Assembly: GCA_030704615.1 (NCBI GenBank)
Contig: CM060731.1
Location: 76,136,001-76,200,000 of the forward strand
DNA length: 64,000 nucleotides
Reading direction: 5' to 3'
Origin: Takakia lepidozioides
Taxonomy: Eukaryota > Plantae > Bryophyta
Positions within the stretch are counted from its first letter, which is position 1, and each line of letters starts with the position of its first letter. Position numbers and translations under genes: made by a program. Shown one piece after another: positions 1-64,000 of this stretch. A model generated the notes under the pieces. The model was not told the origin of the DNA. It worked only from the letters and a program-made list of their open reading frames with translations, and did not search any database.

Positions 1-1065
1 ATCATCCAATTCCAGGCATCCATCAGAGGCTTCTCCACCTGTCCTGTATAGATGCCCTGTGCTTCCAGAGAACAGATGTGACAACATATCAAAGAGTTCA
101 GTTAACAAGTCCCACAGGAATTACAGGAAGAGACATAGCATGAAGAGCATCCATCTGCCACATAGTTAATAGTGACAATGGCAGCTTACTAACAACAATT
201 TCCACAGAACTATCAATGAAGAACCTTGAACGTATGCCAAGCAATTCGACCCTCAATGTAGCTGGAAAAAGGGTGAAAGATCTCAAGGGTGCATTGAAGA
301 GGATGCACATTCCAGCCCTAAAATAATAGGCAACAAAGTCTGATCGCCATAACTTCCTCAAAAACCCTGGCCTCCTCAATTTTAGGATTGATTAAGCCTC
401 GGGGGCATAGACCCTACTCCCTCTTTGAACATTGCAGAATCTTAGTGGGGTGTGGCCCGCATGTGCGTGCGTATGTGAAAAGAGACGTAGAGAGAGAGAG
501 AGAGAGAGAGAGTGTGTGTGTGCGACAGGGGTACCACCTGCAATGCGACTTGTTCAAGAGTGCTGCGATAGATGTTGCTACCGCTGGTGATAGCACGTCG
601 AGCAACCGCAGGTGTAGCGTCGCGCAACAAAGCCAGCAACACAGGCACCATGGTAGGTACATGTTCCACATGCTGCACACCTATACCTTCTATCATCCTG
701 CAATTAAGAACTTCTCCGGTGAGTCCGCATCGTATGTGCTGTCTCTCCTATTCGAAAACTCCACTGCGGGAGATCCAAAATGCAAAGTACTGCCTGCAAA
801 CACAAACAGAGCAAACAACAGACAGAGGAGGACAGAAAAATACATACTCCGCAAGGTACTTTCGGACAGGGCTGCCAGGCTCCGTCTGAAGCTCCATTAG
901 GTATGGCACAAACTCGGGAAGCAACGATGGGTCTCTGTGCAACACTGTCTCCATCACATTCTTTAAAAGATCTGCCTTGGACGAAGCATCTCCCTGCATT
1001 TTCGCCTCATTCAAGAGCTCCACCGCCTGCTCCCTTGCCCCTCCCATCCTTCCCACCATCGCCAT
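1..1065 (-). CDS. Symplekin-like polyadenylation scaffold protein, first three exons (1065-848, 697-538, 56-<1); gene continues beyond the window start
   Basis: Spliced translation MAMVGRMGGAREQAVELLNEAK...PEFVPYLMELQTEPGSPVRKYLAE|MIEGIG...LLRDATPAVARRAITSGSNIYRSTLEQVALQ|GIYTGQVEKPLMDAWNWM matches the plant symplekin N-terminal HEAT region; GT-AG sites with consistent phase. Confidence 0.88.
489..522. repeat. (AG)n(TG)n compound microsatellite in symplekin intron 2
   Basis: agagag... run followed by tgtgtgtgtg. Confidence 0.95.
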
Positions 1066-1938
1066 CTCCCTCGCTCCTCTCCTCCTCCGCTCTCCCACTC
1101 CCCTTCCAACCCTCGCTACCCTACTACATCGATCACTGGGCCGGGATTCACACTTAATTGTCCCTTGAACCCTTCCTACCACCCTAACCTAACCTAGCCT
1201 TAAATTAAATTTTCATGAACCTAACCCTAACCCTACTTTACAAACAAATTTTTGTGTTCAGGGCCAGTCTCTTTGACTTCGACTAACTTCTTTTTGGCAC
1301 TGTGGACGAGGCTTGAAGGAACATTGAAGATGCATACCAGGCCTACTAGCCCTACATTGGTAGAGTGATATATATCACATTCATCAGTCATGCTTTGGTT
1401 CTCAATAACAGTAACACTGTTCCCTTCTTCAAGCGCCCGTGGTTTGAGTGCCTTAGTGCCCTTTTATGAAAAGATAGGCAAATGCACCCCAATGCGGTAC
1501 CCCAAGTCGTCAAAAAAACAAGTGGCTAAACGCGTAATGGCTTCACCCTCCAATAGAGAATATATAAGAAAATACTAATATGAAATGATATTAACAACTT
1601 GAAAGCTATGTATATAAGTTTGTGATTTGTCCAATATGCCTATCTAACTCCAAATATGCATTGTTGGTTTGGTGTATTTGTCCAAATGTGATACAATTGT
1701 GAACCATAAATTGCAGTTTACATGAATTGAAGTATCATGCTAATCATCATGCCCTTCGACTGACACCTCCCACTGGCCTCAACAATCCCCGAGCTATGAC
1801 AATTTGACCGGACTGAGGTCAGCTGGAAATACATAAAAGTTGCCACTAAAACGAAGCTTCATTTTCATAGATAAATTGTGATGCAGCCTGTAGGCTTGGA
1901 TTCATAAAATGGATATGAAGACAATTCAAGGCTTAGTC

Positions 1939-1983
1939 TGTCGCGCACCACATTTCATAAACTCCCATTCAAGTCATAGTTAG
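1939..1983 (-). mobile_element. Terminal fragment of an LTR related to the chromovirus at 9940-16917
   Basis: tgtcgcgcaccacatttcataaactcccattcaagtcatagtta versus tgtcgcgcacctcacttcggtaaactccccttcaagtcatagtta at 9940; similarity fades afterwards. Confidence 0.6.
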
Positions 1984-2428
1984 AGTCGGGTTCCATAAGC
2001 AGCTGCAAGCGTCCCCCGCTCCCCCCCCCTCCCTGAATCGCCCCCAGGATTAGCGAGGCGCTATTGGTCGGAATAGCATATTCCCTAAAGGGCGCCCCAA
2101 CGGAATCGCCCCTTGCGAAGGGGCACCCCTTCACAAGGGGCAGTCGAGTTTTGTGGCGCCCGTAACTAACACCTTCGTCATTTCCTCGGAGCGCCTTCGT
2201 CGTTTCCTTATAGTGGGGCCCGTAGCCTGTTTCACAAGAGGGAAGAGAAAGAAAGGGAAGAGAAAAAAAAAAATGAAATGATGTTCGTCGAAGGAAGAAA
2301 CCCAAGCGTGAGGGGCGTCGACGTTAGTTGGTGAAGCCAAGGTTTATGTTGCTCGTGAGCAGATATTGGGAAGGTACATTGTGATGTTGTTTCATTCACA
2401 TTCCAAGTGATATGCTAGCCTTGTAGCC

Positions 2429-2856
2429 ATATCACACACTACAATTGATTGAATTGACAAGAAATGGGAGGCAAAAATGCACAGCAAGGTCATGCAGCCA
2501 AATACAAACAAGATGAAACAGGAGGGGCTCAGCTATTTGGACATAACTTTTTCTCACCACTTTGGATTTGAATAAAACTTAACAAAAAATATAGGAAATC
2601 AAGTTAGCTTTCCAAAGACATATCACACACTACAATTGATTGAGTTAATAAGAAATGGGAGGCAAAAATGCACAGCAAGGTCATGCAGCCAAATACAAAC
2701 AAGAGGAAATGGAAGGGGCTCAGCTTTTTGGACATAATTTTTTTTCACCACCTTGGATTTGAATGAAACTTGAACACACAGTTAGGAAATTAAGTTAGTT
2801 TTCCAAACAGATATCACACACTACAATTCATGGAGTTGACAAGAAATGGGAGGCAC
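2429..2856. repeat. Tandem repeat, about 191-bp unit, about 2.2 copies
   Basis: atatcacacactacaatt...aagaaatgggaggca recurs at 2429, 2620 and 2811. Confidence 0.85.
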
Positions 2857-2904
2857 AACATGAATTGGGCTTCACAAGGAAAGCTCTTAAATGAAAAAGG
2901 ATCA

Positions 2905-3933
2905 TGTCACGGACATAACCCAGAGGAACTTACTAGGAATAAATACCGAAAGTTACCAAGTTACCATGTTACCGGAAGTTACCATGATTTACCGTGATTT
3001 ACCATTATCTACCAAGTTATCGGGAGCTTACCAAATTACCGAGAGTAACTTGGGAAACTGCTCAGGAAGCTTCCATCAAGATACCTCATTTGTTTAAGGA
3101 AGCTTCTCCATCAAGAGACCTTTGTTTAATCTTGGAAACTTCTCCAGCAAGAAACCTCCATAAGGGAAGCTTCTTAGTATCCAGTATATATAGGAGGCGA
3201 GACTGGACACTCTTCAGTCTCGCTAACACCAGTTCAAGCTACTCTTGTTTCCAGTTCCCAATACTCTAGCCCAGTTTCCAATATCTGGTACTCCAGTCTA
3301 GTTTCCAGCATTTCAGTATTCAAGTCGTGTTCCAATATTTTGTACTCTTGTTCATTGTTATAAAGATCATCTTTATTCATATTTACTCATCGTGCATACG
3401 GCCACGCCGACCTTGACTTCTTGTCTAGTTTTGTACCTCTAGTCTGATCTCTTGTTTGTGTTCAGTCATGTTCTCGTCCTTGACAGTTTGGCGAGACTGA
3501 AGTTTGTTCTTTAGTTAGTTAAGATGGAAGGTAGATTTGTGGAAATGGTCACCACATTGCAGAGTCTTCAGCTCCAGATGCAAGAACTTTGTGCCTCTAC
3601 TGCCCAACTACAAGCTGAAGTCTCAAGATCTTAGCAACGCTCTCAACAATTGCAACAACAAATTTCAGAGTTGAAGGAGTTGAACAATGGATCTTCAACC
3701 TTTCGAGTCTCTACTACAACAAATCTTACTGCCACGGTTCCTCCAAATCTTCAACAGATTACAAGGGAACCAAAGGACAGCATGCCCGAAAAATTTGATG
3801 GGACGAGATCAAGATTTCGCGGGTTTGTTCAACAAGTATGATTGTTTCTACGACTACATCCACAACGCTACCCTGATGAAGGTATTCAAGTGGGATTCGT
3901 GGGCACCATTCTATCAGGCACTGCCCTATCTTG
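2905..3933 (+). mobile_element. Truncated Ty3/Gypsy (Tf1/Tcn1-like) element: 5' LTR 2905-3485, PBS 3490-3502, decayed gag from about 3524
   Basis: LTR termini TGTCACGGAC...GTCCTTGACA (9/10 inverted match); TATA at about 3185; gag EPKDSMPEKFDGTRSRFRGFVQQV*LFLRLHPQRYPDEGIQVGFVGTILSGTALSW; cut at 3934 by a MULE end. Confidence 0.82.
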
Positions 3934-4730
3934 GGAGGTTTGCTATTTCATGAGCATGAGCGGCATGAGCGGAGTAGTAAGACAATCGGTTTTCATGAGC
4001 AGAAGTACAATTTTCGAAAATAAAAAACAATAAAAACAATAATTTAATGCAATATGTCAGGAAAAACAAATATATTATTCGGCCCCTTGAAGGGAAAATT
4101 GCAGTTTTGACAGTTGTGCTAATGATATTTCGTCTTCCGCTCATGCCAATTCCCAGCGACATGTGCAAATATGGCGCCGAATTTCGCGGTAATAGGTCTC
4201 TCTGGCGAAAAATGGTGCCGGATTCCGCGGCTATAGGTCCCTCATGACAGGTAATTCGGCACCATTTTTCCAGTGCATGTTCGGACTTAGCCAGTTTTCG
4301 GCGCAAAATAGGGAAATTCGGCGCCATTTTTCCAGACACTATACCCGTGCATGTTGGGACTTAGCCAGTTTTCGGCCCAAAAAAAAGAAATTCGGCGCCA
4401 TTTTTCCAGACACGGGACCAGTGCATATTGGGACTTAGCCAGTTTTCGGCCCCAAAAAGAGAAATTCGGCGTCATTTTTCCAGAAATGGCCCCACAACTG
4501 CTTCTGTTGGATCTCAGTTTGAATGGAATATTGTCTCATTCCAGGAGTTTTGGGGTGCATTTCATTACACTGCAAAAAAAAGTCTGATACAGCAAAATGC
4601 AATTGAAAATATCCATATGGAGGATTCCCTTTGCCCCATCATGATTTCTGGAATCCCTAAGGAGGAGTTTGTGCAGCTCGTTCACGCTCAACACCGGTGC
4701 ATGAATAAAGTCATCAATAGTCACGTTCAT
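3934..4730 (-). mobile_element. 3' end of MULE-like DNA transposon (copy A): terminus GGAGGTTTGC, subterminal repeats, last codons of the SWIM-containing transposase
   Basis: Near-identical reverse complement of about 6707-7617; encodes MNVTIDDFIHAPVLSVNELHKLL. Confidence 0.8.
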
Positions 4731-5230
4731 NNNNNNNNNNNNNNNNNNNNNNNNNNNNNNNNNNNNNNNNNNNNNNNNNNNNNNNNNNNNNNNNNNNNNN
4801 NNNNNNNNNNNNNNNNNNNNNNNNNNNNNNNNNNNNNNNNNNNNNNNNNNNNNNNNNNNNNNNNNNNNNNNNNNNNNNNNNNNNNNNNNNNNNNNNNNNN
4901 NNNNNNNNNNNNNNNNNNNNNNNNNNNNNNNNNNNNNNNNNNNNNNNNNNNNNNNNNNNNNNNNNNNNNNNNNNNNNNNNNNNNNNNNNNNNNNNNNNNN
5001 NNNNNNNNNNNNNNNNNNNNNNNNNNNNNNNNNNNNNNNNNNNNNNNNNNNNNNNNNNNNNNNNNNNNNNNNNNNNNNNNNNNNNNNNNNNNNNNNNNNN
5101 NNNNNNNNNNNNNNNNNNNNNNNNNNNNNNNNNNNNNNNNNNNNNNNNNNNNNNNNNNNNNNNNNNNNNNNNNNNNNNNNNNNNNNNNNNNNNNNNNNNN
5201 NNNNNNNNNNNNNNNNNNNNNNNNNNNNNN
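4731..5230. other. Assembly gap (500 N)
   Basis: Run of N. Confidence 1.
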
Positions 5231-11573: not shown

Positions 11574-14500
11574 TCAACGCTTCTTCCGCTTTTGAGGTCG
11601 CCCTTCGAAAGCTGCAACCGCCTCGGATGCGTTTCCCATTTCTGAGGCACGCACCCAAGATGCCTCCACATGATGATAGCCCTTCCATTTGACGAGATAC
11701 TCCGTTTCTCGGTTCCTGAACCTCCTCGACTTAAGTATTGCCTCCACCTCGTACTCAGGTTCATTTTCATGATCCAACAGCATAGGTGGTGGACGCAACA
11801 CTTGATGCCGATTCGGACGCGCTTCATCTTTGAAGTAAGGCTTCAAAAGGGAGACATGGAATACTGGGTGCACCTTGCTGTTTGCCGGCAGCTCCAATTC
11901 ATACACATCCTCATTCATAACCTTCCGAATGCGAAAGGGTCCCGCATACGGAGGTACGAACTTCGGACTCACTTCCGGAGGTAGTCGGAAATTCTTGATG
12001 TTCAACCAGACCTCTGTGCCTGCCTCAAACTTCACTTCCCTCCGCTTCCGATTCGCCTGCCTTTCATACCGTTTCCTAGCTTTGGCAATATTGTACTTTG
12101 CGAGCTTCAACAAACGCTCGCGTTCTTCCAGTACCGCTGCTACTGCCGGTTCCTCAACGTCCTGGGCGGCCCAACTTGTCGGCACCAGAGGTGCTTTTCC
12201 ATAGACCAATACGAAAGGGGAAACTCCCGTTGCGGAGTGTTCTGTGTTATTATAACAGAACTCTGCCGCGTCTAAGTGTTCCATCCAGTCTGATTGGTCT
12301 GCCGACACGTAATTCCACAAGAATTGCTTCACTACGGAATTCACTCTTTCTGTTTGGCCGTCCGTCGTAGGTCGGAAGGCGGTGCTCATCTTCAGCCTCG
12401 TCCCCATCTTCTTCCAAAGTGTCCTCCAAAATTTACTCGTAAACTTTGGATCGCGATCCGAGACAATATCCTTCGGGACTCCATGATGCTTTAAGACGTG
12501 GGCGAAGTAAAGTCGCCCTGTCTCCTGCGCCGTTGCCGTCTCTTTGGTGGGGATGAAATGGCCCATTTTACTGAACCTATCCACCACCACCATGATTGCA
12601 TCGAATCCTTTTGACAGCGACATAGTAGTCATGAAATCCATCGAGACGCTTTCCCAAGTCCCCTCTGGAATCGGCAAGGGTTGTAACAGCCCCGCTTGCT
12701 TTTTGTACTCGCTCCGGTTTTGTTGGTATGTGGTGCATGTCTTGACATACTCCTCTGCCTCCTCCCTCAGTTTGGGCCAGAAATACTCTTTCTTCAAGAG
12801 TGTCGCAGTGCGCTTGGCTCCGCCGTGGCCCGCAAGCGGGCTATCATGGCATTCACTCAAGAGGCTATCTCTGATCCCTCCCTTCGGCACGTAGAGACAC
12901 TTTTGCTTATACCGGAGCAACCCATTTTGCAAGTGGAACTGCGATTTAACCCCCATTCTCAAGTCCTGCATCACGGACTTTGCCAGCTCATCCTTCCGGC
13001 AAGCCTTCCGGATCTTCCTTTGGAGCTCCGTCTCGCCCTTGTACACCAACAAGAGCTGCTGCTTTCTACTTAAAGCATCGGCCACCACATTGTCCCGTCC
13101 CGGTTTGTACTGGATATCCACGTCGAACACCGCCAAAGTATCTTGCCACCTAAGTTGTTTTGGGGACAATTTGGGCTGCGTGGCAAAATACTTCACTGTG
13201 ACATTGTCCGTGAACACCTTCACTGGGTTGGAACCAACATAGTGGCGCCAAAGCTCAAGGCAATGCACCACCGCCTTCATCTCTTTTTCGTGCGTCGGCC
13301 ACCGTCGCTCCACTTCATTCAGTTTCTTACTTTCGTAAGCCACTGGACGTCCATCTTGCATAAGTACACCCCCAATCGCAAAGTCCGACGCATTTGTATG
13401 AATCTCAAATGGACGATTGAACTCCGGGATTTTCAAGACTGGAGCTTCCGCCATCCGCTGCTTCAATTCAGCAAAAGCTTGGCCACAAAAGGTGTTCCAT
13501 GCCCAGACTTTAGATTTACACAGAAGGTCTGACAGCGGCCCCGCAATCTTGGCGAAATTTCTCACATACTTCCGGTAATAGGAGGCGAGTCCTAGGAAGG
13601 ATCGTACTCCCGGGACCGAAGTCGGAGGCTCCCAGTCCAAGATCGCCCTCACCTTTCTATCATCCATTTTGATCCCATCCTGTGTAATCACATGCCCCAA
13701 GAACTCCACTTTCGTGACCCCGAATTCGCACTTTGAAGCTTTGGCATACAGCTTCCCTTCTCGCAATTTCTGGAACACCCTTTTGAGGTGCTCCAGGTGC
13801 TCCTCCTTTGTTTTCGAGTACACCAAGATGTCGTCGATGTACACGATCACAAAGTCATCCAACCACTCCTGAAAAAGGCTGTTCATCAGCGTGCTAAATG
13901 TCGCTGGTGCATTGGTGAGCCCAAAAGGCATCACCAAGAACTCATATGAACCATACCTTGTCCTGCACGCGGGTCTTCTCCTCATCTCCTTCCGCCACCC
14001 GAATTTGGTGATAGCCGGAGCGCAAGTCGATCCGGCTGAAATACTTCGCTCCTGCCAACCGATCGAAGAGGTCGTCGATCCTTGGCAAAGGGTACTGGTT
14101 TTTGATAGTCACCTTATTCAGAGCCCTGTAATCGACACACATTCGCAGCGTCCCATCCTTCTTGTCTGCAAATAGCACCGGGGCTCCGTAAGGTGACTTA
14201 CTCGGCCGGATGTACCCCTTTGACATTAGATCCTTGAGCTGAGTCTTCAGCTCGACCAACTCTCTGTGGCTCAACCGGTAGGGCGCCTTGGCAGGTGGTT
14301 TCGATCCCGGTATCACCTCAATCTTGTGGTCAACTCCTCTTCGCGGTGGCAAGCCGCTTGGTAAATCCTCCGGCATCACATCCTGGTATTTTTCCAAAAT
14401 CCCCTTGATCCAATCTGGGCTCGGCTCCCCATCGCCTTCTCCCTTCGCTTCTCTAATGTAAAGCAAGAACTGGGGTTCGTGTGCCTCCTCCACGACCCAC

Positions 14501-55200: not shown

Positions 55201-55797
55201 AGGGGCTACTTGTTCTTTGTGTGCTAGTTTCGCATAATTGTTAATTTCACCAATTTCATTTCGCTGCTGTGGAAATTTCACGGAAATTCGGGGAAATTGC
55301 CCTTGTGCTCACGTGAGCATGCTACCCAACCTCCTAAAACAAAAGTTTTTAATATCCAAAACTGGCATATATGGAAAAACAAATCCCTAAAATATTTTTA
55401 TTTGATTTCCTTAATACCATCACTTCATGTATGTTATATAGCGGCAATTAAAAATACCCTCGGTGGTTGGTATAGGATTGGTCAGTGCGTCATACTCAAT
55501 TTTGCATGTAGTGCAGTATCTCAAATTTATTTACGTGGACTTGTTACAAGCGTGAGGATCAAGCCGTTGGCATATTATACTTACAACAGAGGACTAATTA
55601 TATTATTATTATTATTAAATATCATTACAACAGAGGACCAATTCGAAGCCGATCGACTCATCTCCGGAATGAGGACTCGACTCCAAGTTTTGTCTTTTCT
55701 CTAGAGATGCTCCGGTACGCTCGATAACTGAGCAAGTGTGTGGATGAGGAATACGTATAAGGTCACTTGCTCAGGTTGATATGACAGAATAGGGAAG

Positions 55798-58774
55798 ATG
55801 GAGAAGATTATGGTCGCTCTAGTTGTAATGATTACAACCATGTTTACGACCACACCGCTTTGTCTGCGGATTGATGCAGCGTCGAGTCCTGACTTGGAAC
55901 CCATATCTAAAATTGAGGCTAAATCTCACAAGAAAGCTAGGGCAGGTGCATACTTTGTATTTGGGGACTCCTTGCTGGATGCAGGGGAGAACAACTACTT
56001 GGGGCCGTCTTCACCGAAAGCCAACTTCCCCCCATACGGAGAGACCCACTTTCACAAGCCTACAGGCCGCTGGACAAATGGTCGCAACATTGGCGACTTT
56101 ATCGGTAACAGATCAAACCTGGGTCTTATTAGCTACTAGTAGGCACGACATGTATGTACTCGTTCTTGTTCACTTACCCTCTGTGCAGTTCCACGGTCAA
56201 GAAGTCCATCAGTCTGTCACTGAGATCTTCAGTCGTGAACTAGCAGAAGGTCCAATCGTCGGGTGAGCTTGATTCTCGAAAAGTGGAGTGCATATCCAGC
56301 CAGGGCTGATCAGATCACTATCGTCTGTCAACTTTCGGGTTACTGACTAAATTATGTGCGGTGGAATTCACATGTTGACAGCGCACCAATTGGGACTGCC
56401 CTATGCGCCCCCATATTCGCAACCGGGTGCCAGCTTCCGCAAGGGAGTGAATTTTGCATCTGCTGGAAGTGGGCTTCTAGACACTACAAGCCCCAATACG
56501 GTAAGATGATTCCATTTAATATGATTGAGCAGCACTCATGTGTGTGTACTACTCTCAGTACTTCATAGCTTTACCCAAGCTACGTATCAGTCGGCCATGA
56601 TCTCCGATGGTCTCAAGGCTCGCGAGGCGCATCTGTCAAAATGCGACAGGATTCTCGGATTTCTATAAGCTGGACATGAAGCAACTCGTGCGGACTTTGA
56701 AGTACAGGCCGTAATTTAGCTCTTGACTGTAAACTATACAGACCGCGTTGTGCTGTGCCTTTAGAAACAGGGTGGAAAACATGCAACCAAGGGCCTCCGC
56801 TTGTCATCCGGGATTGATACCTCAAATGAATGAAAGAGATTATCACAAACAATCAATGTGCCAATGCTACCGAGACTAGAGTACCCTTGAACCCTGGGCA
56901 TGCGCAAGCTTGAGCGTCTCAATCATCCAGTCTTCCGACATTTGCACCAATTGGCCCACAGCTTCAAATCTAGGTCGTTAAAACATTTGTTCGACCAGAT
57001 ATGCTTTCTTTCAAGTGAGTGGGTAGACTGTTATGAGACTGTTATAAGGTGTTTTTATTGGGCCATTTGCCTGTGGCTCTGTAGATGTAAGAGAGTGACC
57101 AGCGGTTCAATCCTCATCGTGAGGTCTTATGCTTGGAACCATTGCAGAAGTCATGGAGCCGATTTTACTTCATCAGCTGTAATCTGCTGAAATAACTCAT
57201 ACTTACCTTTGGACAGGGTCTCCATCAGTAAGTCACCTGGCAAGTCTGTGATTGATATATCACAACTGCACGACTGTCCCTAACGGTTTCTAATAACAAA
57301 TTGAGGAACGGCAGAGAATGCTTATTGTAAATCATCCAGCTATCATCCAGTCTTCCGACATTTGCACCAATTGGCCCACAGCTTCAAATCTTGCTCTTCA
57401 TCAGCTGTAATCTGCTGAAAAACTCTAATACTTACCTTTGGACAGGGTCCCATCAACAAGTCACCTGGCAAGTCTGTGGTTGATATATCACGACTGTCCC
57501 TGACGGTTTCTAATAACAAGTTGAGGAACGGCAGAGAATGCTTATTTTGTTACTTTTTTAGACTGCTCAATCTAGGTCTGGTTTCATTGCTTGCAGACAA
57601 ATCCCATGAGCCTGCAATTAGCCCAGTTCAAGAATGCAACTGCCATTCTGAAATTGGAGCTGGGAGCACATGCTGCTCATCATGTCATGACTAAAGCATT
57701 TTATCTTATACAAAGCGGTTCTAATGATCTTACTCGCTACCTTCAAAGTCCGGATCTCCAGAAGCAGTACACTCCGAATCAATACATCGCCTTAATTGTG
57801 GAGGCACAACAACGGATTCTCTCGGTAAGTTTGTGGATTGTTGATTTTGTTACCAAGACCAATTGCGATCGGTCACCTGTTGCACGAGCATGTTCACCGC
57901 ATTGTCACAAATCACACCTGTACCCGCATGTGAAGTCGTGACATCTCGTCTCTGGGAAGTTCGTTTTCAAAAGCTCACACAGGAAGGACTAGCTTAAATG
58001 TTGAGAGCACTGTCTGAATGATTAGATTTCTAGCATCATCACATGGTCAATCTCCTCAAGTATTAGCCTTACTGCCTGCAAACGCGCTGCACACGTGATA
58101 ATCTCCCCATAATCTCATACAAAACTGCACAACAATTGGAATCCATGGCAGACGTTATACCAAGCAGGGGCACGCAAGGTGGTGGTGTTCGGCATTCCTC
58201 CGATGGGCTGCACACCCTTTGCCCGTTTCTCCAATTCGGCACAGCCTGGACAGTGCCTTTCGGTTGGGAATGAGTTCGCTGTAGAAACCAACGTGGGGTA
58301 CAAGAGCGTAGTCGATGCCGTCCGCTCGAAACTTCCAGGATTCCATGCAGTGTATACGGAAACCTTGAGCCCAGCGATGGCTATCATCAACAACGGCCCC
58401 GCCCACGGTACTATTCCATGATCCTTGTCACCACTCCTTGGAAGGAAAAACAGACCATCACCTCAGTTCACCATGGAATTTTCCATGACCATACTCAAAG
58501 ATGGTGGTATCCTTTGGGTGCAGGGTTGAAGAATGTGAGTGCTGCCTGCTGTGGAGCTGGTCCTCTGCAAGCGGAAGTTCGCTGTGGATTGCCATTGCCT
58601 GCTCATCTCACCCTCTCGGTCTGCGACAGGCCAGATGAGTACTTCTTCTGGGACACTCGGCATCCCACTGAAATAGGTCACCGCATGCTATTCGAACTCT
58701 TTTGGGATGGCAACTCCTCCATTAGCTACCCCATCAATGGGAGGACCTTGTCCAGACTTGGAAGGACAGTCTAA
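55798..58774 (+). CDS. GDSL esterase/lipase with signal peptide (exons 55798-56104, 56382-56500, 57597-57824, 58152-58407, 58524-58774)
   Basis: FVFGDSLLDAG; PTGRWTNGR; GVNFASAGSG; GSND; GARKVVV..IPPMGCTP; ACCG; FFWDTRHPTE. Confidence 0.95.
56922..57545. repeat. Imperfect tandem duplication inside GDSL intron 2
   Basis: atcatccagtcttccgacatttgcaccaattggcccacagcttcaaatc at 56922 and 57342; cttcatcagctgtaatctgctgaaa...gaggaacggcagagaatgcttatt also repeated; second copy lacks about 200 bp. Confidence 0.85.
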
Positions 58775-59099: not shown

Positions 59100-59411
59100 A
59101 TGGAAACTATACAAGAAGCAAAGGTAGAGAAGTTTGACGGCAAATTTTTTGGGATGTGGAAGTTCAAACTAGAGATGTTGCTTTATGATCGAGGTCTTTG
59201 GAGAGTTGTCCAAGGTGTAGAGAAATCTCCTGAGAAACCTGATGACTTGATTGGAGACAATGCAACGACCAAAGTTTTTTGCAGTGGGAGCGGAACGATG
59301 AACGAGCAACGACTACCATCTGTCTGCACCTCTGTGACAAGCAGTTGATCTTTGTAAAAGAAGACAAAACATCAAAGGAGGTTGGGAGTTGTTTGTGAAG
59401 AACTATGAAGG
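59100..59411 (+). mobile_element. Copia gag N-terminal fragment, cut by the DNMT-bearing element
   Basis: VEKFDGKFFGMWKFKLEMLLYDRGLWRVVQG...WERNDERATTTICLHLCDKQL. Confidence 0.8.
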
Positions 59412-62400
59412 TGTCGTGAGCATACATATCGCTACACAACTACATCGTTGTCCAAAACCACACAACACATGTGCACGCCACACACTAGTATATCACTAGT
59501 CCACCACTAGTCCAGCCACTAGGCTACAACTAGTCAGTCACTAGGCTGCCACTATGCTGCCCACTATGGCAGTCATTAGTCCACACAATGATAAAGAATA
59601 CAAGCACAAGCTCATGCGAGCTCACAAAGCTGAAGCATAAACTCCTCGAGCACCACCCACGTGTGCCATGGATGCCTGCACCCCGTGGTCCTCACATGCT
59701 CGCCCCCACTCACTGCCTGTACCGTCTCGGTAGGCTGAGAGACCATCGAGGGAAGTGTACTCCGCACTCTGCGTTGCTCAGCCATAGCCAAGCTGATAAT
59801 CCAGGTCAAGCAATTGAGATCCATTGCTTGCCCCAACACCTGACGACGTGATGCCTCAGAAAGAGACGACACCGCCGTGGTACCAGTGGTAAAACCCATT
59901 GCCCGCTCACTCTCGTCAGCATTAGGCTCCACTAACTGCTGCAACTGAGCATCCTACAGGAGGCCAGGTCCACAATCCCGGAAAGCATGTGATCATGGGA
60001 AGCTGAGCAGTGTAGGTAATGCTGCTCGTGATTGACCCACCTTGTTGACCACTGCCAAAGGCAAACGGTCATCGTGTCTCATACGCTGAGACTGCCTCCC
60101 TGTGTCCAGAATGCTATCCACTATGAGATGTGCTGGCCGCTGCACCCCATCAAATGCACGCTTGAGCAGTGTGGGTGGCATCAAATTAGTCCACCATAGC
60201 CGTGGACGATGAGCCCGTGACCCCATTGTAGCTGCATCTAACAACACTGCTGACCCAAGCCACGACCGAACTTGATGCACACTGGCCATCATCCTGGCCC
60301 GAGAATCGCCGATCAGTGGCATATTCTCCAAGATATATGCTGGAGATACAACTTGATGAAACTGCAAGTGACGCAAAACCCGCACCATCTCCCAAAACAG
60401 ACCCGACCTCGAGTCTCGCAATCCATTGCCATGCTCGGCTGATGAATACCCTTAGCAGGGCTAACCTGCCATTACCAGATCAATGGAGCCAACCCGCTCC
60501 AAATCCTGCGCCCCCAGCAACGAAATGTCTAATGGCAATGCCAGCTAATATCCACAAACTGCAGCCACCGGCAATAACTCAGGGTACCGCTGCACTAACT
60601 AAGCAACACGGCGAAGTGAAACGCGTCGTGTAGTCTCATCCCTCTCCACATGCAGGTAACGCCAAACTCGTGCACCTGCCTGTAACACAGCAGCCAATCT
60701 AGTGCTGATCCCGCCAAACAAGTCCAGAAGACAAATGCCTTCATCCGGATACTGCCACACAATAGGTGTGGTGTCCAATGGAGACAACTGAGGTGGTCCT
60801 GGTGCAATCCCCGCACTCTCCTCCTCTCCTGATGGTACAAAAGCCTCCACTCAGGCTTGTTGCACCCGTCGATCAGCAACCCGTCGCAAATCCTTGCTCG
60901 TGCCCCACAATGGAGTCTGAGCAACCATGACAGACAACTCCGCCATATCATACATGTTATCATGTTTTCCTGGAGGTATGTCATCCTCTGAATGAGCGTT
61001 TCCCTCAAGCAACTCTCCAGGCCAAGTCACTACAGCTGTGAATGCTGCTAGTGTCGGCATCTTGCCCCGCTGGGCAACTGCAACTCCTCCTATAAACGTC
61101 ACAGGGAGCTGTACACGCCGGCACTCCCCTGACTGCCATCCAGGCCTATAGGAAGCTGACTCCTCCCAAAAATCTAGGGTGAAGCCCATGGGGTACAACA
61201 TTGCCCCACCAACCAGGACATCGTACGAGACCGCGTCTGTCACAATGGCCTTGGCTCACATCACTGAGCCATCTGTAGGGTGATCCAGCCGTAGTCTGAT
61301 AGCCAACTCACACCGTGTCATGCCCCGAGCCTGCTCCGATCCTCTCAGAGACGTCTGTATCTGGAAAGGACAAGGCTCCATATCCGTCTCTATGAGGCCC
61401 AAGCCTGCAATAGCAGCTCTGCCTAGCATCAATGGCTGAGCTCCTGAGTCCAACAAGACCCGCAGTGGCCGGTACCTCTTGCCTACCGGTCCACTCAAAC
61501 AAAAAATGCCATCCTGGTTGTCTAACATGACAACTCCAAGTGTCACCATGGCGCACTCAATGGCTGGCCTAGCTGACAGCTCCATGAACCTTGCAGCTGC
61601 AGCTTGCCATGGCGCCGCCGTGGCAGTCTTGACCCTCAAATCCGAGGATCCCTCAGGCACTACACCTCCCACTATCTCCGCAGAAGATGAAGTAACCTCC
61701 CCACTCTCACAGAGTGTAGCTGCCAGCTTGAACACCTCAGCTAGTCTTACTCCCCGGCGTCGCAATCATGGTAACCGAGAACAATGGAGCCTGACACACA
61801 GATGCGGCCGCTCCCAGCAGCATACTAGCTGCCGTAGCCTTGGCAACACTAGATAGTGGTGCTACCCGTGTAGCTCTCCCCAATGGCGTAGTAACCTCCG
61901 TCTCGGTAACAGTCGGGCGAGAACTAGGTGCCATGGATGGCGTCGACACTGTCTCCGCCAATGTGAATGACTGAGGGAGCCTAGCCTGACGGCTTGCCTC
62001 CCCACGCTGTGGATCCAACTCCACCTCTGCACCTCGTGGCTCAGGAACTCGTGCTGCTCCTCGAGTCACAGCTGCAGCAGACTCCACCTGCACTAGTGGT
62101 AGTGCTGCTCCGCACATGAATCCCATGCCTCCCATATCTCCTCCCTCAGGAGCACGAGGTGGACCATCCGGCCTTGGAGCCGGTACCACCTGAGGTGTAG
62201 CCATGGCAGCGAGCCTCTGCTCTAGCTGCTGAAGCCGGTTGGCCATGCCTTGGTCAACACCCTGACCTCCGCGTCCTTGGCCATGTTGAGCTTGCCCTTG
62301 GCCTACACCCCGTGCCTGGCCACCTCGTCCTCTTTGGGCTGCTCCCCCTCGCCCCCGGCCACCATTGTTCCCTTGGAACTGGCCTGGGCGCAACTCGGGA

Positions 62401-64000
62401 TGCAAACCATAACACTGGGCCTCTCCACGCCCGTGCTTGCCACAATGCCCACACTGCAACTGTGCAGGCTGTGCATGTGCCGGCCCTTTGCCTCCCTCTG
62501 GACAATCCTTCTTGACGTTGGGTCCTCGATATGTCCAACACACCACATCCGCCCATTGTTGGCCTGCAAATGAAGGTAGAGACCCATGCATCTGAGGTCC
62601 TCTCTGCCCTTCCCTGAGCTTCACATGAGCCCCCTTGTTGCCTTGAGCACGTTGAGGTAGTGGTTGGCTAAGAGCACCACTACCCCGTGGTATCTCCTTA
62701 GCAAATCCCACCATGACCACTCGTTCCTCCACCATGTTGAGCTCTATCCGCTCTGCCAGCAAAAACACATTTGCTAAGGTGGGTTGGGCCGCTTATAGGA
62801 GAGTTGCATCCCGCACCCTTCTCCTCAACTCCTTGTCCAATATCCCATACCGGAATTGGACTGCCTGAGCTTCCGTAACCCCTTGGGTTACATTTATCAA
62901 GCGCCTCATGCGAGTGAAAGCCTCCCTCAAGCTCTCAGTAGGCTTCTGTTGGAACTCTTCGCAACTTCTCTGTCTTCACCCCTCGGTAGTTCCCTCTCAA
63001 CTCTTCGAAGAACTTCACAACAGGGTTAAAGGCAGGCACGGGTACTGGTGCTGGTGTTGGTGCGGTAGTGGCTTGGGTGGACGTCGTAGCTACGGTACCA
63101 CCAGTCCTACTAGTCCCACTCCTGCTTGCTGAAGCTACCGGTGCAGCGGCAGGTGTAGCCACTGCCCTCGTGACTCTAGTGCCCCTAGTGATGGAGACAT
63201 AGTCGGGTGACCAGTACATCCTCTACTCCTCGATCTCAACCTCATGCCCCCGCCTGAACTCATGGTAATCATCCATAGGCGGCCCCTCAAGGTGCTGAAA
63301 CAGCCCCTTCCATGCCATGAAAGGCGTAAATAGTTGTGGATTGCGCATTTGCTACAAATCACACCAACTATCAAACTCTTGGATAAAATCATCCAACTCG
63401 ATGGTGCCCACCGCCCCAGAGTACCTTCGTGGCCTTGGTAGCTCCATACATCTCTTCCATTGTGTCCCACAACAATGGCAAAGAAATAACTTGCACCGCC
63501 GGTATGAGTCCTCCTGATTCACAATCCGAATCAGAACCTTCCGTAGAAGACACAGGAGGTGAAGGTGGCCTAAACCGCACACCTCGTACACTAGTATCGC
63601 TAGTGCTCGAACCGGCACTGTCCCCAGCAACTAGTGGCACCTCCGTGTTGACACTCAACCGGTCATGAACATGTCCCTAAACCCCCTCTCCACAAGGTAA
63701 CCGGGTAGAGAACCTGTTGCGGCTTATGGATTGGAATACTAAGTTCCTAACATAGCCTACACCTGTACCTGCATCCACCGCAAGCATTCCTATGGTTGAC
63801 TGGTCATCACCTCCAACCTCACCACAGGAGAAACAATGATGGTCTGGCTGGTAGCGCCCACACAAAACTAGCATGGCGCACAGTCAAGCATGCAGGTATG
63901 GAGGAGATCCAAACACAAAAAATCAGAACGACAACTCCCCCACACCAAAAACAACTCCACGGTGTTGCTCATGCAAGGACACCCCAGCCCAAACCCGGAC
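59412..64000 (-). mobile_element. Gypsy-like LTR retroelement encoding Gag, zinc knuckle, aspartic protease and cytosine-5 DNA methyltransferase; 5' end outside window
   Basis: Gag PRRYSG...IELDDFIQEFDSWCD and FQQKPTESLREAFTRMRRL; knuckle CGHCGKHGRGEAQC; protease RVLLDSGAQPLMLG...YDVLVGGAML; DNMT motifs; minus-strand end ...CTCACGACA abuts the Copia gag. Confidence 0.85.
59790..60745 (-). pseudogene. DNMT3-like C5 cytosine methyltransferase domain within the retroelement polyprotein (in-frame stops, no frameshift)
   Basis: Motif I LLDLFGGISTRL; II YLHVERD; IV IDLVMAG*PC*GYS (PC at 60455-60460); V DSRSGLFWEM; VI YILENMP; VIII DAATMGSRAHRPRLWWTNL; IX ESERAMGF; X RRQVLGQAMD. Confidence 0.9.

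Follow-up and report, generated by a model that had tools for sequence, protein, structure and literature searches.

A decayed Gypsy-type retrotransposon copy with a DNMT3-like methyltransferase in Takakia lepidozioides, probably stripped of reverse transcriptase, RNase H and integrase by a single internal deletion

DNMT3-like retrotransposons have been published for a charophyte alga and for dinoflagellates, according to the available sections of de Mendoza et al. 2018 (PMC5890265). There, KnitGypsy-Dnmt3 of Klebsormidium nitens is described as combining Gypsy domains with an intronless DNMT3-like domain in its polyprotein, and its repeats follow the order A-coding-B-A-B, as in DIRS elements. 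For such elements, it has been proposed that their own DNMT methylates newly made element DNA (same sections of PMC5890265). The accessible part of a 2026 preprint (10.64898/2026.05.21.726589) uses ‘streptophytes (Gypsy-DNMT3)’ as a type name. Our literature search found no report of DNMT-carrying retrotransposons in bryophytes, and the available portions of PMC11982613 and PMC9033089 contain nothing on DNMT-carrying bryophyte elements. Here, we analyzed a stretch of 64,000 nt from Takakia lepidozioides (assembly GCA_030704615.1, contig CM060731.1, positions 76,136,001–76,200,000), referred to below as the window. Its minus strand, from ~63470 to 59412, holds one retrotransposon copy with Gag, protease and a DNMT3-like cytosine methyltransferase. 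It is the 3' end of a decayed Gypsy-type copy, which most likely lost its reverse transcriptase (RT), RNase H (RH) and integrase (IN) through one internal deletion private to it.

The coding content was delineated with protein models of relatives (all features on the minus strand). The gag start at ~63470 is homologous to the MDGMYGA.. start of the relatives. The region of Gag and its CCHC knuckle (61740–63470) runs through three frames; in tblastn, residues 11–160, 158–530 and 539–1241 of the relative P0052 matched 63432–62953, 62969–61779 and 61753–59657, respectively. The aspartic protease region (61259–61765, with VLLDSGAQ at 61459–61436) was placed by alignment with the relatives and lies in the same frame as the DNMT; this frame has in-frame stops downstream of the protease region. 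No Pfam match to a protease was obtained in the window piece, and a weak Asp_protease_2 match appeared only in the relative P0055. The DNMT3-like C5 cytosine methyltransferase domain (59813–60730) was detected by PF00145 in the read-through translation (E = 6.7e-9, 36.1 bits, cut-off 22). This translation was needed, since Pfam searches with single open reading frame (ORF) pieces of the window gave nothing for gag and protease and a sub-threshold match for the DNMT. Motifs I, IV, VI, VIII and X were all located in the copy. Alignment with the relatives placed motif I (LLDLFGGIS) at 60730–60704, motif IV, which carries two in-frame stops, at 60469–60443, ILENMP at 60334–60317, RPRLWWTN at 60208–60185 and LGQAMDLN at 59836–59813. 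The best matches of the P0052 methyltransferase were DNMT3A, 3B and 3C chains (E = 1.7e-8). The domain is followed by a linker (59645–59812, by alignment with the relatives) with a conserved HPWHTW at 59674–59657.

No RT, RNase H or integrase was found after the DNMT, as the earlier note on this DNA had already stated; tblastn with seven relatives covered 63432–59636 only. The only matches to these domains within the window belong to another element at 12162–14370 (minus strand), whose Gypsy-type RT, RNase H and integrase are of a different family, with 24–39% identity to the DNMT family proteins. The copy is by descent a deleted member of the Gypsy-DNMT3 retrotransposons and not a complete one.

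The relatives reveal what the missing part would have looked like. A protein search yielded 50 relatives of like length and 9 that are longer. Those with a species name belong to Marchantia polymorpha, Calypogeia fissa and Sphagnum species (42–60% identity), with Riccia as a further host, and the remainder are from other sources. Metagenome contigs were scanned as well: 141 of 195 candidate stretches were confirmed, and the best 80 of them were taken as loci (prefix L). In Marchantia, Calypogeia, Sphagnum and the moss-associated metagenome contigs, the layout is Gag-protease-DNMT, a conserved in-frame stop and then RT-RH-IN. The models P0052, P0006, P0007 and P0003 end ~40 residues after the conserved HPW.TW, and the shorter Marchantia and Calypogeia models end at the conserved stop. 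The Marchantia and Sphagnum models P0053, P0054, P0005 and P0022 continue from HPW.TW into a Gypsy RT, with RVT_1, RT_RNaseH and rve recognized by Pfam in P0005 and P0022. Forty-seven metagenome loci were informative, since they contain the end of the DNMT and 1200 nt or more beyond it. A complete RT directly follows the DNMT in 36 of them, and in three it comes after a gap of ~1.1 kb. Four loci have a cut RT (L031/L051, which are one locus, and L047/L048), and four have none: L020 and L045 carry RT-RH-IN deletions, L052 is without RT, and L071 has another domain order.

Several of these loci represent independent deletions of all or most of RT-RH-IN which keep Gag-protease-DNMT and repeat B (L045:1716–2061, L020:11956–12856, L031:7240–7417, equal to L051:5312–5487, and L052). 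Each RT-less relative has a junction of its own; the RT of L031/L051 breaks off near residue 93, and the beginning of B follows immediately.

The stop between DNMT and RT is TAG in 29, TAA in 7 and TAC in 2 of the 38 loci (within L001–L064) that matched the surrounding peptide pattern, for example at L006:4509–4511, L008:1470–1472 and L060:6940–6942. It is followed by CAA CCC, or by CAA CCA in L006. UAG-CAR-YYA is a leaky stop codon context known from plant viruses. The conserved stop resembles this context, which makes it a candidate for programmed read-through, and we infer that the RT-RH-IN part of intact relatives would be made by reading through the TAG. If the stop is leaky, the methyltransferase, encoded upstream of it with Gag and protease, would be produced in larger amounts than RT and integrase.

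The termini of the relatives are built from two split repeats. In L060 and L078 (element spans L060:1678–10805 and L078:1326–12353), the order is A1-coding-B1-A2-B2, with A of ~340 nt and B of ~115 nt. The A-coding-B-A-B layout was seen in L060, L078, L027, L036 and L038. Five loci end with B-A-B at the 3' side, and seven with a single B and a long flank. Repeat A starts with TGTCATGACC, repeat B ends with ..TATGTATTCGCACGACA, and a conserved polypurine tract, ..CTAGGGGGGCGAG, directly precedes B in all 14 loci shown. The two ends are thus unlike: the 5' terminus is formed by A, the 3' terminus by B or B-A-B. At the B|A boundary (..CACGACA-NN-TGTCATG..), element ends seem to have been joined end to end. 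Six two-ended loci (L060, L078, L018, L021, L030 and L031) are flanked by 4-bp target duplications. Five are perfect and the sixth has one mismatch; they include AAGG, AATC, TGTT, TACA and TGTG, and that of L018 is perfect only if the start of A is read as mutated. In spite of this permuted layout with unlike terminal repeats (A...B), the insertions bear 4-bp duplications typical of DDE integrases.

The place where the window copy departs from this layout was located with Logan contigs from sequencing runs holding window DNA, aligned onto the window at a likeness of at least 80%. Runs X1–X4 are one sample, possibly the source of the assembly, and X5 and X6 are small. Of the 6430 aligned pieces, 32 were listed, as were 23 of the 162 rows of loose ends. 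The homology of the window to the relatives ends at 59645, and the tblastn matches of relatives end at 59636–59657. Before 59644, 14 X1, 7 X3, 2 X5 and 1 X6 contigs continue the linker with another sequence, on which they agree fully (agreement 1.0), and over the length shown these alternative linkers keep the frame and contain no stop. A second, independent line came from the Logan-derived protein P0061, with 88% identity to the DNMT end of the window. Its BLASTP alignment runs through ..HPWHTW(V/E)VLE up to residue 707 (codon end 59645). Beyond this residue, P0061 has 33 more residues and then its own stop; the window instead has EFMLQLCELA and a stop. The contig contexts and the P0061 alignment therefore place the junction at 59645|59644 (minus strand), where linker codon 707 (..HPWHTWVVLE) is joined to repeat A.

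The tail behind the junction consists of two pieces. Repeat B (the 3' terminal B2; 59412–59588, minus strand, 177 nt) ends with ...GATATGTATGCTCACGACA. It was assigned from the B end of the relatives and from contig contexts: over its final ~45 nt, up to 59412, it can be aligned to the repeat B end of L060, L078, L036, L027 and L038. A MAFFT alignment of the window tail with the A2 end and B2 of the relatives was convincing only over these ~45 nt. In 11 X1 contigs, the match to the window extends to 59589 and is replaced there by a G-rich tract, ..CCAGCTAGGGGGGCG (element strand), which lies directly before B and resembles the polypurine tract of the relatives. Since this tract ends at the B start, B spans 59588–59412. 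Within B, 59487–59560 is a run of 11–12-nt CCACTAGTCCA-like units, the number of which varies among copies; a 12-nt insertion occurs at 59515 in X5 and X6, and 20 X1 contigs have loose ends at 59522.

Between the junction and B lie 56 nt (59589–59644, minus strand), which are most likely a remnant of A2, the end of repeat A. This assignment is based on the sequence settings of the segment in the contigs, because its two settings are those expected for the end of repeat A. Diverged bridging contigs (X1 record 5, X3 record 12) have B after it, whereas 3 X5, 1 X6 and 10 X4 contigs have ..CTCGAGAAAGAT.. The latter context resembles the sequence after A1 in the relatives (..CTCAAAGAACTA..). Behind 59644, 17 X1 contigs and 1 X6 contig carry A sequence that the window does not have (agreement 0.99). 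Of the A-coding-B-A-B arrangement, the window thus retains only the last 56 nt of A2 and B2, and no 5' repeat was identifiable within it.

This anatomy changes how the end of the reading frame is to be understood. The frame does close at 59612, as previously noted, with a TGA at 59612–59614 (minus strand) inside the 56-nt segment. This is not the end of the original ORF: the last 10 codons and the stop are repeat-A DNA behind the junction. With the junction at 59645|59644, the TGA is best read as a chance stop in repeat DNA, the conserved stop of the family having been deleted together with RT-RH-IN. We also considered the TGA as the conserved stop of the first ORF with a short linker and a junction at 59588/59589; this was ruled out by the repeat-A contexts and by the homology break at 59645. 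A polypurine tract and long terminal repeat (LTR) start had been suggested at 59696. The tract in question, GAGTGGGGGCGAGCA (~59700), is not a polypurine tract, because it is coding and conserved as ‘..GGE..’ before HPWHTW in the relatives. An ordinary LTR was expected as well; the family has the split A and B repeats instead. No direct repeat links 59380–59700 with 63400–64000, even at the level of 7-letter words, although the window may not reach the 5' end, and no second element copy or LTR was found within the window.

In the simplest mechanism, one internal deletion would have joined the DNMT linker (59645) to the last 56 nt of A2 (59644), with B2 following. Lost with it would have been what remained of the linker, the conserved ORF1 stop, RT, RNase H and integrase, as well as the 3' untranslated part, the polypurine tract, B1 and most of A2. 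With the relative L060 as a yardstick, its size would be ~3.8 kb. We infer that a single deletion made the junction and that the junction is private to the window copy. Of the two options that the earlier note had left side by side, the evidence supports the internal deletion of RT-RH-IN, as the relatives run from HPW.TW through the linker and the stop into RT-RH-IN.

Some points weigh against this explanation. The uniqueness of the junction was judged from the 32 pieces and 23 rows mentioned above, and the window’s own bridging contig was not among them. The 5' side of the copy is interrupted by the breakpoint at 63852|63853. The assignment of the 56 nt to repeat A relies on short contigs and on the relatives instead of a full-length copy from the same genome, and the window’s own 5' region contains no copy of the 56 nt.

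The other option of the earlier note was a non-autonomous Gag-protease-DNMT family. In this case, the junction would be shared by a subfamily whose copying depends on RT and integrase from full-length relatives; we regard this as unlikely. Helpers would be at hand, given the abundance of the family (summed depth of ~1 million against ~50 in the flank), RT-less derivatives have arisen repeatedly in the relatives (L045, L020 and L031/L051), and the pieces listed are too few to speak against a minor subfamily. Nevertheless, no contig among those listed bridges 59644/59645, and many begin or stop at 59644–59648. The loose ends on both sides show near-perfect agreement, which indicates that the common neighbors of either side are other sequences. 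Moreover, the window copy is without two parts that all full relatives have ahead of A2–B2, the polypurine tract and B1; B is preceded by repeat-A DNA here. The separate junctions of the RT-less relatives point in the same direction, since the only pair sharing one, L031/L051, is a single locus, 95% identical including its flanks. The option thus finds no support in the listed contigs or in the 3' end of the copy. The earlier note had named two observations that would speak against it: the relatives do continue past HPWHTW into RT, and the junction is probably unique, though this falls short of proof. It is more doubtful still that the window copy itself belongs to an RT-less Gag-protease-DNMT lineage copied in trans by full-length relatives. 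If true, this would be a methyltransferase-carrying satellite retrotransposon, which spreads a DNA-methylating enzyme without its own replication machinery.

Two separate deletions, one beginning in the linker and ending within the 3' untranslated part, the other extending up to the start of B, would also yield the observed order, and the 56 nt would then not be the end of repeat A. We consider this very unlikely. It would fit the missing 56-nt copy in the 5' region of the window, where repeat A is expected too. However, the join between the 56 nt and B occurs in diverged contigs that do not have the other junction, with X3 record 12 departing from the window at 59644, and both contexts after the 56 nt match those after repeat A in the relatives. 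Least credible is an assembly artefact in which the DNMT linker and repeat A were misjoined: both sides are high-copy repeats, the listed contigs leave the join unbridged and a second odd junction lies at 63852|63853, but no more than one base is common to the two sides where they meet, whereas false joins usually fall inside shared repeats, the adjoining joins have contig support (an identical X1 contig for Copia|B, diverged contigs for A|B), and real deletions of like kind occur in the relatives.

The 3' boundary of the copy is well defined. The element terminates with ...CTCACGACA at 59412, where the X1 summed depth, which is not a copy count, rises by about four orders of magnitude, from 180 (59392–59405) to 1.6 million (59420–59433). 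Contigs with loose ends before 59412 (55 from X1, 26 from X3 and 3 from X5) have low agreement values of 0.44, 0.40 and 0.71, respectively; the flanks are therefore unlike. Position 59412 is a true element end, and many copies end exactly there. The depth jump, the unlike flanks and the alignment with the repeat B end of the relatives confirm the end proposed earlier.

The element truncates, at 59411/59412, what looks like the N-terminal part of a Copia-type gag (59100–59411, plus strand, with one frame change and one stop). PF14223 (Retrotran_gag_2) gave two colinear matches, one at 59282–59395 (profile 32–65, E = 0.0016, 18.4 bits) and another at 59100–59279 (profile 2–25, E = 0.19, 11.6 bits). 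The insertion into a Copia gag described in the earlier note is thus weakly supported by the colinearity, with both matches remaining under the Pfam cut-off of 27. An X1 contig identical to the window spans 59350–59441 and bridges the Copia|B join.

By zone, the summed depth is ~50 in the left flank, 380–4400 in the Copia-like flank and ~1 million from 59413 on; in X1, it amounts to ~0.3–2 million across 59413–64000, whereas the unique flank has ~50. Few repeats of Takakia lepidozioides seem to be as abundant as the DNMT-carrying family, and the depth suggests a very high copy number in this host.

The 5' side is less settled. The leader upstream of gag (63471–63852, minus strand) stops at the 63852|63853 breakpoint. 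On both sides of it, other copies have different sequence: loose ends were seen behind 63852 in 8 X2 and 11 X3 contigs, and before 63853 in 42 X1, 15 X2, 26 X3 and 17 X4 contigs. The remaining 148 nt (63853–64000, minus strand) form a high-copy segment running off the window, which may be further leader, repeat A of the family or another repeat. Its summed depth of 651,000 in X1 is element-like, and it has no similarity to the tail. The family may have its 5' end 25 nt beyond 63852; alternatively, the leader of the window copy may run off the window and contain a further internal deletion. The distance from the 5' end to the gag start, ~1.5 kb in the relatives (L060) and ~420 nt in the window, argues for the second reading. 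In a DNA alignment of the window leader with the leaders of the relatives, only the gag start aligned. One X1 contig of single-copy depth joins 63852 to 59412 with 9 letters between them. From the duplications flanking the relatives, we predict a target duplication of 4 bp for the window copy, compared with the 5 bp assumed before.

The copy is heavily decayed. Read through from 61765 to 59615, the frame is 717 residues long and is interrupted by 8 in-frame stops (3 TGA, 4 TAG and 1 TAA), and the gag shifts frame. The earlier description of an open frame does not hold given these stops and frame changes. In the rows listed, nearly all other contigs carry another letter at 3 of the 8 stops. Compared with the X1 contigs, the window has A/T where they have G/C at 149 places, and the reverse at 90. 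The window copy cannot function, because of the 8 stops across the protease and DNMT regions, including two within catalytic motif IV, the frame changes in gag, the missing polypurine tract and the rearranged 5' side.

Elsewhere in the window, 4731–5230 is an assembly gap of 500 N. Just left of the Copia-like fragment, ORF pieces at 55780–58774 (plus strand) look, by eye, like exons of a GDSL-type esterase/lipase (..FVFGDSLLDAGENNY..).

Compared with known systems, the window copy is probably not a new kind of element. LARDs, TRIMs and BARE-2 are non-autonomous LTR derivatives without RT and integrase, which depend on helpers and form many-copy families with intact ends and priming sites. A non-autonomous Gag-protease-DNMT family would amount to an element of this type. 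Unlike them, the window copy is without a polypurine tract, and no second copy of its junction was found among the 32 of 6430 pieces listed. It is in itself ordinary, one broken and internally deleted repeat copy.

The features of the family are more interesting than those of the window copy. RT-less derivatives arise repeatedly, which is notable beside the conserved TAG and the unlike ends with their 4-bp duplications. The split repeats bring to mind DIRS elements together with Ngaro and PAT-like elements, which we take to be further elements with split direct repeats. All of these use a tyrosine recombinase, whereas the relatives described here encode a DDE integrase (PF00665) and have 4-bp target duplications. 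The likeness to DIRS elements concerns the A-coding-B-A-B order of the repeats (available sections of PMC5890265).

A second, more distant group of Gypsy elements (P0056–P0060 and L071), from metagenome sources, carries a related DNMT in its polyprotein, with 36–38% identity and E values down to 7.7e-59. The domain order is different, RT-RH-DNMT-IN-PHD, with RNase H before the DNMT, integrase after it and a PHD finger last, and there is no sign of a Gag-protease-DNMT frame closed by a stop in this group. Related methyltransferases therefore occupy two places in Gypsy polyproteins.

With KnitGypsy-Dnmt3, likened by its published description and not by sequence, the relatives share the A-coding-B-A-B layout, the Gypsy domains and a DNMT3-like methyltransferase. 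The differences are that the hosts here are bryophytes, that the order of domains here is Gag-protease-DNMT-stop-RT-RH-IN, and that the window copy is without RT-RH-IN. DNMT3-like retrotransposons, published for a charophyte alga and dinoflagellates, appear here in liverworts and mosses.

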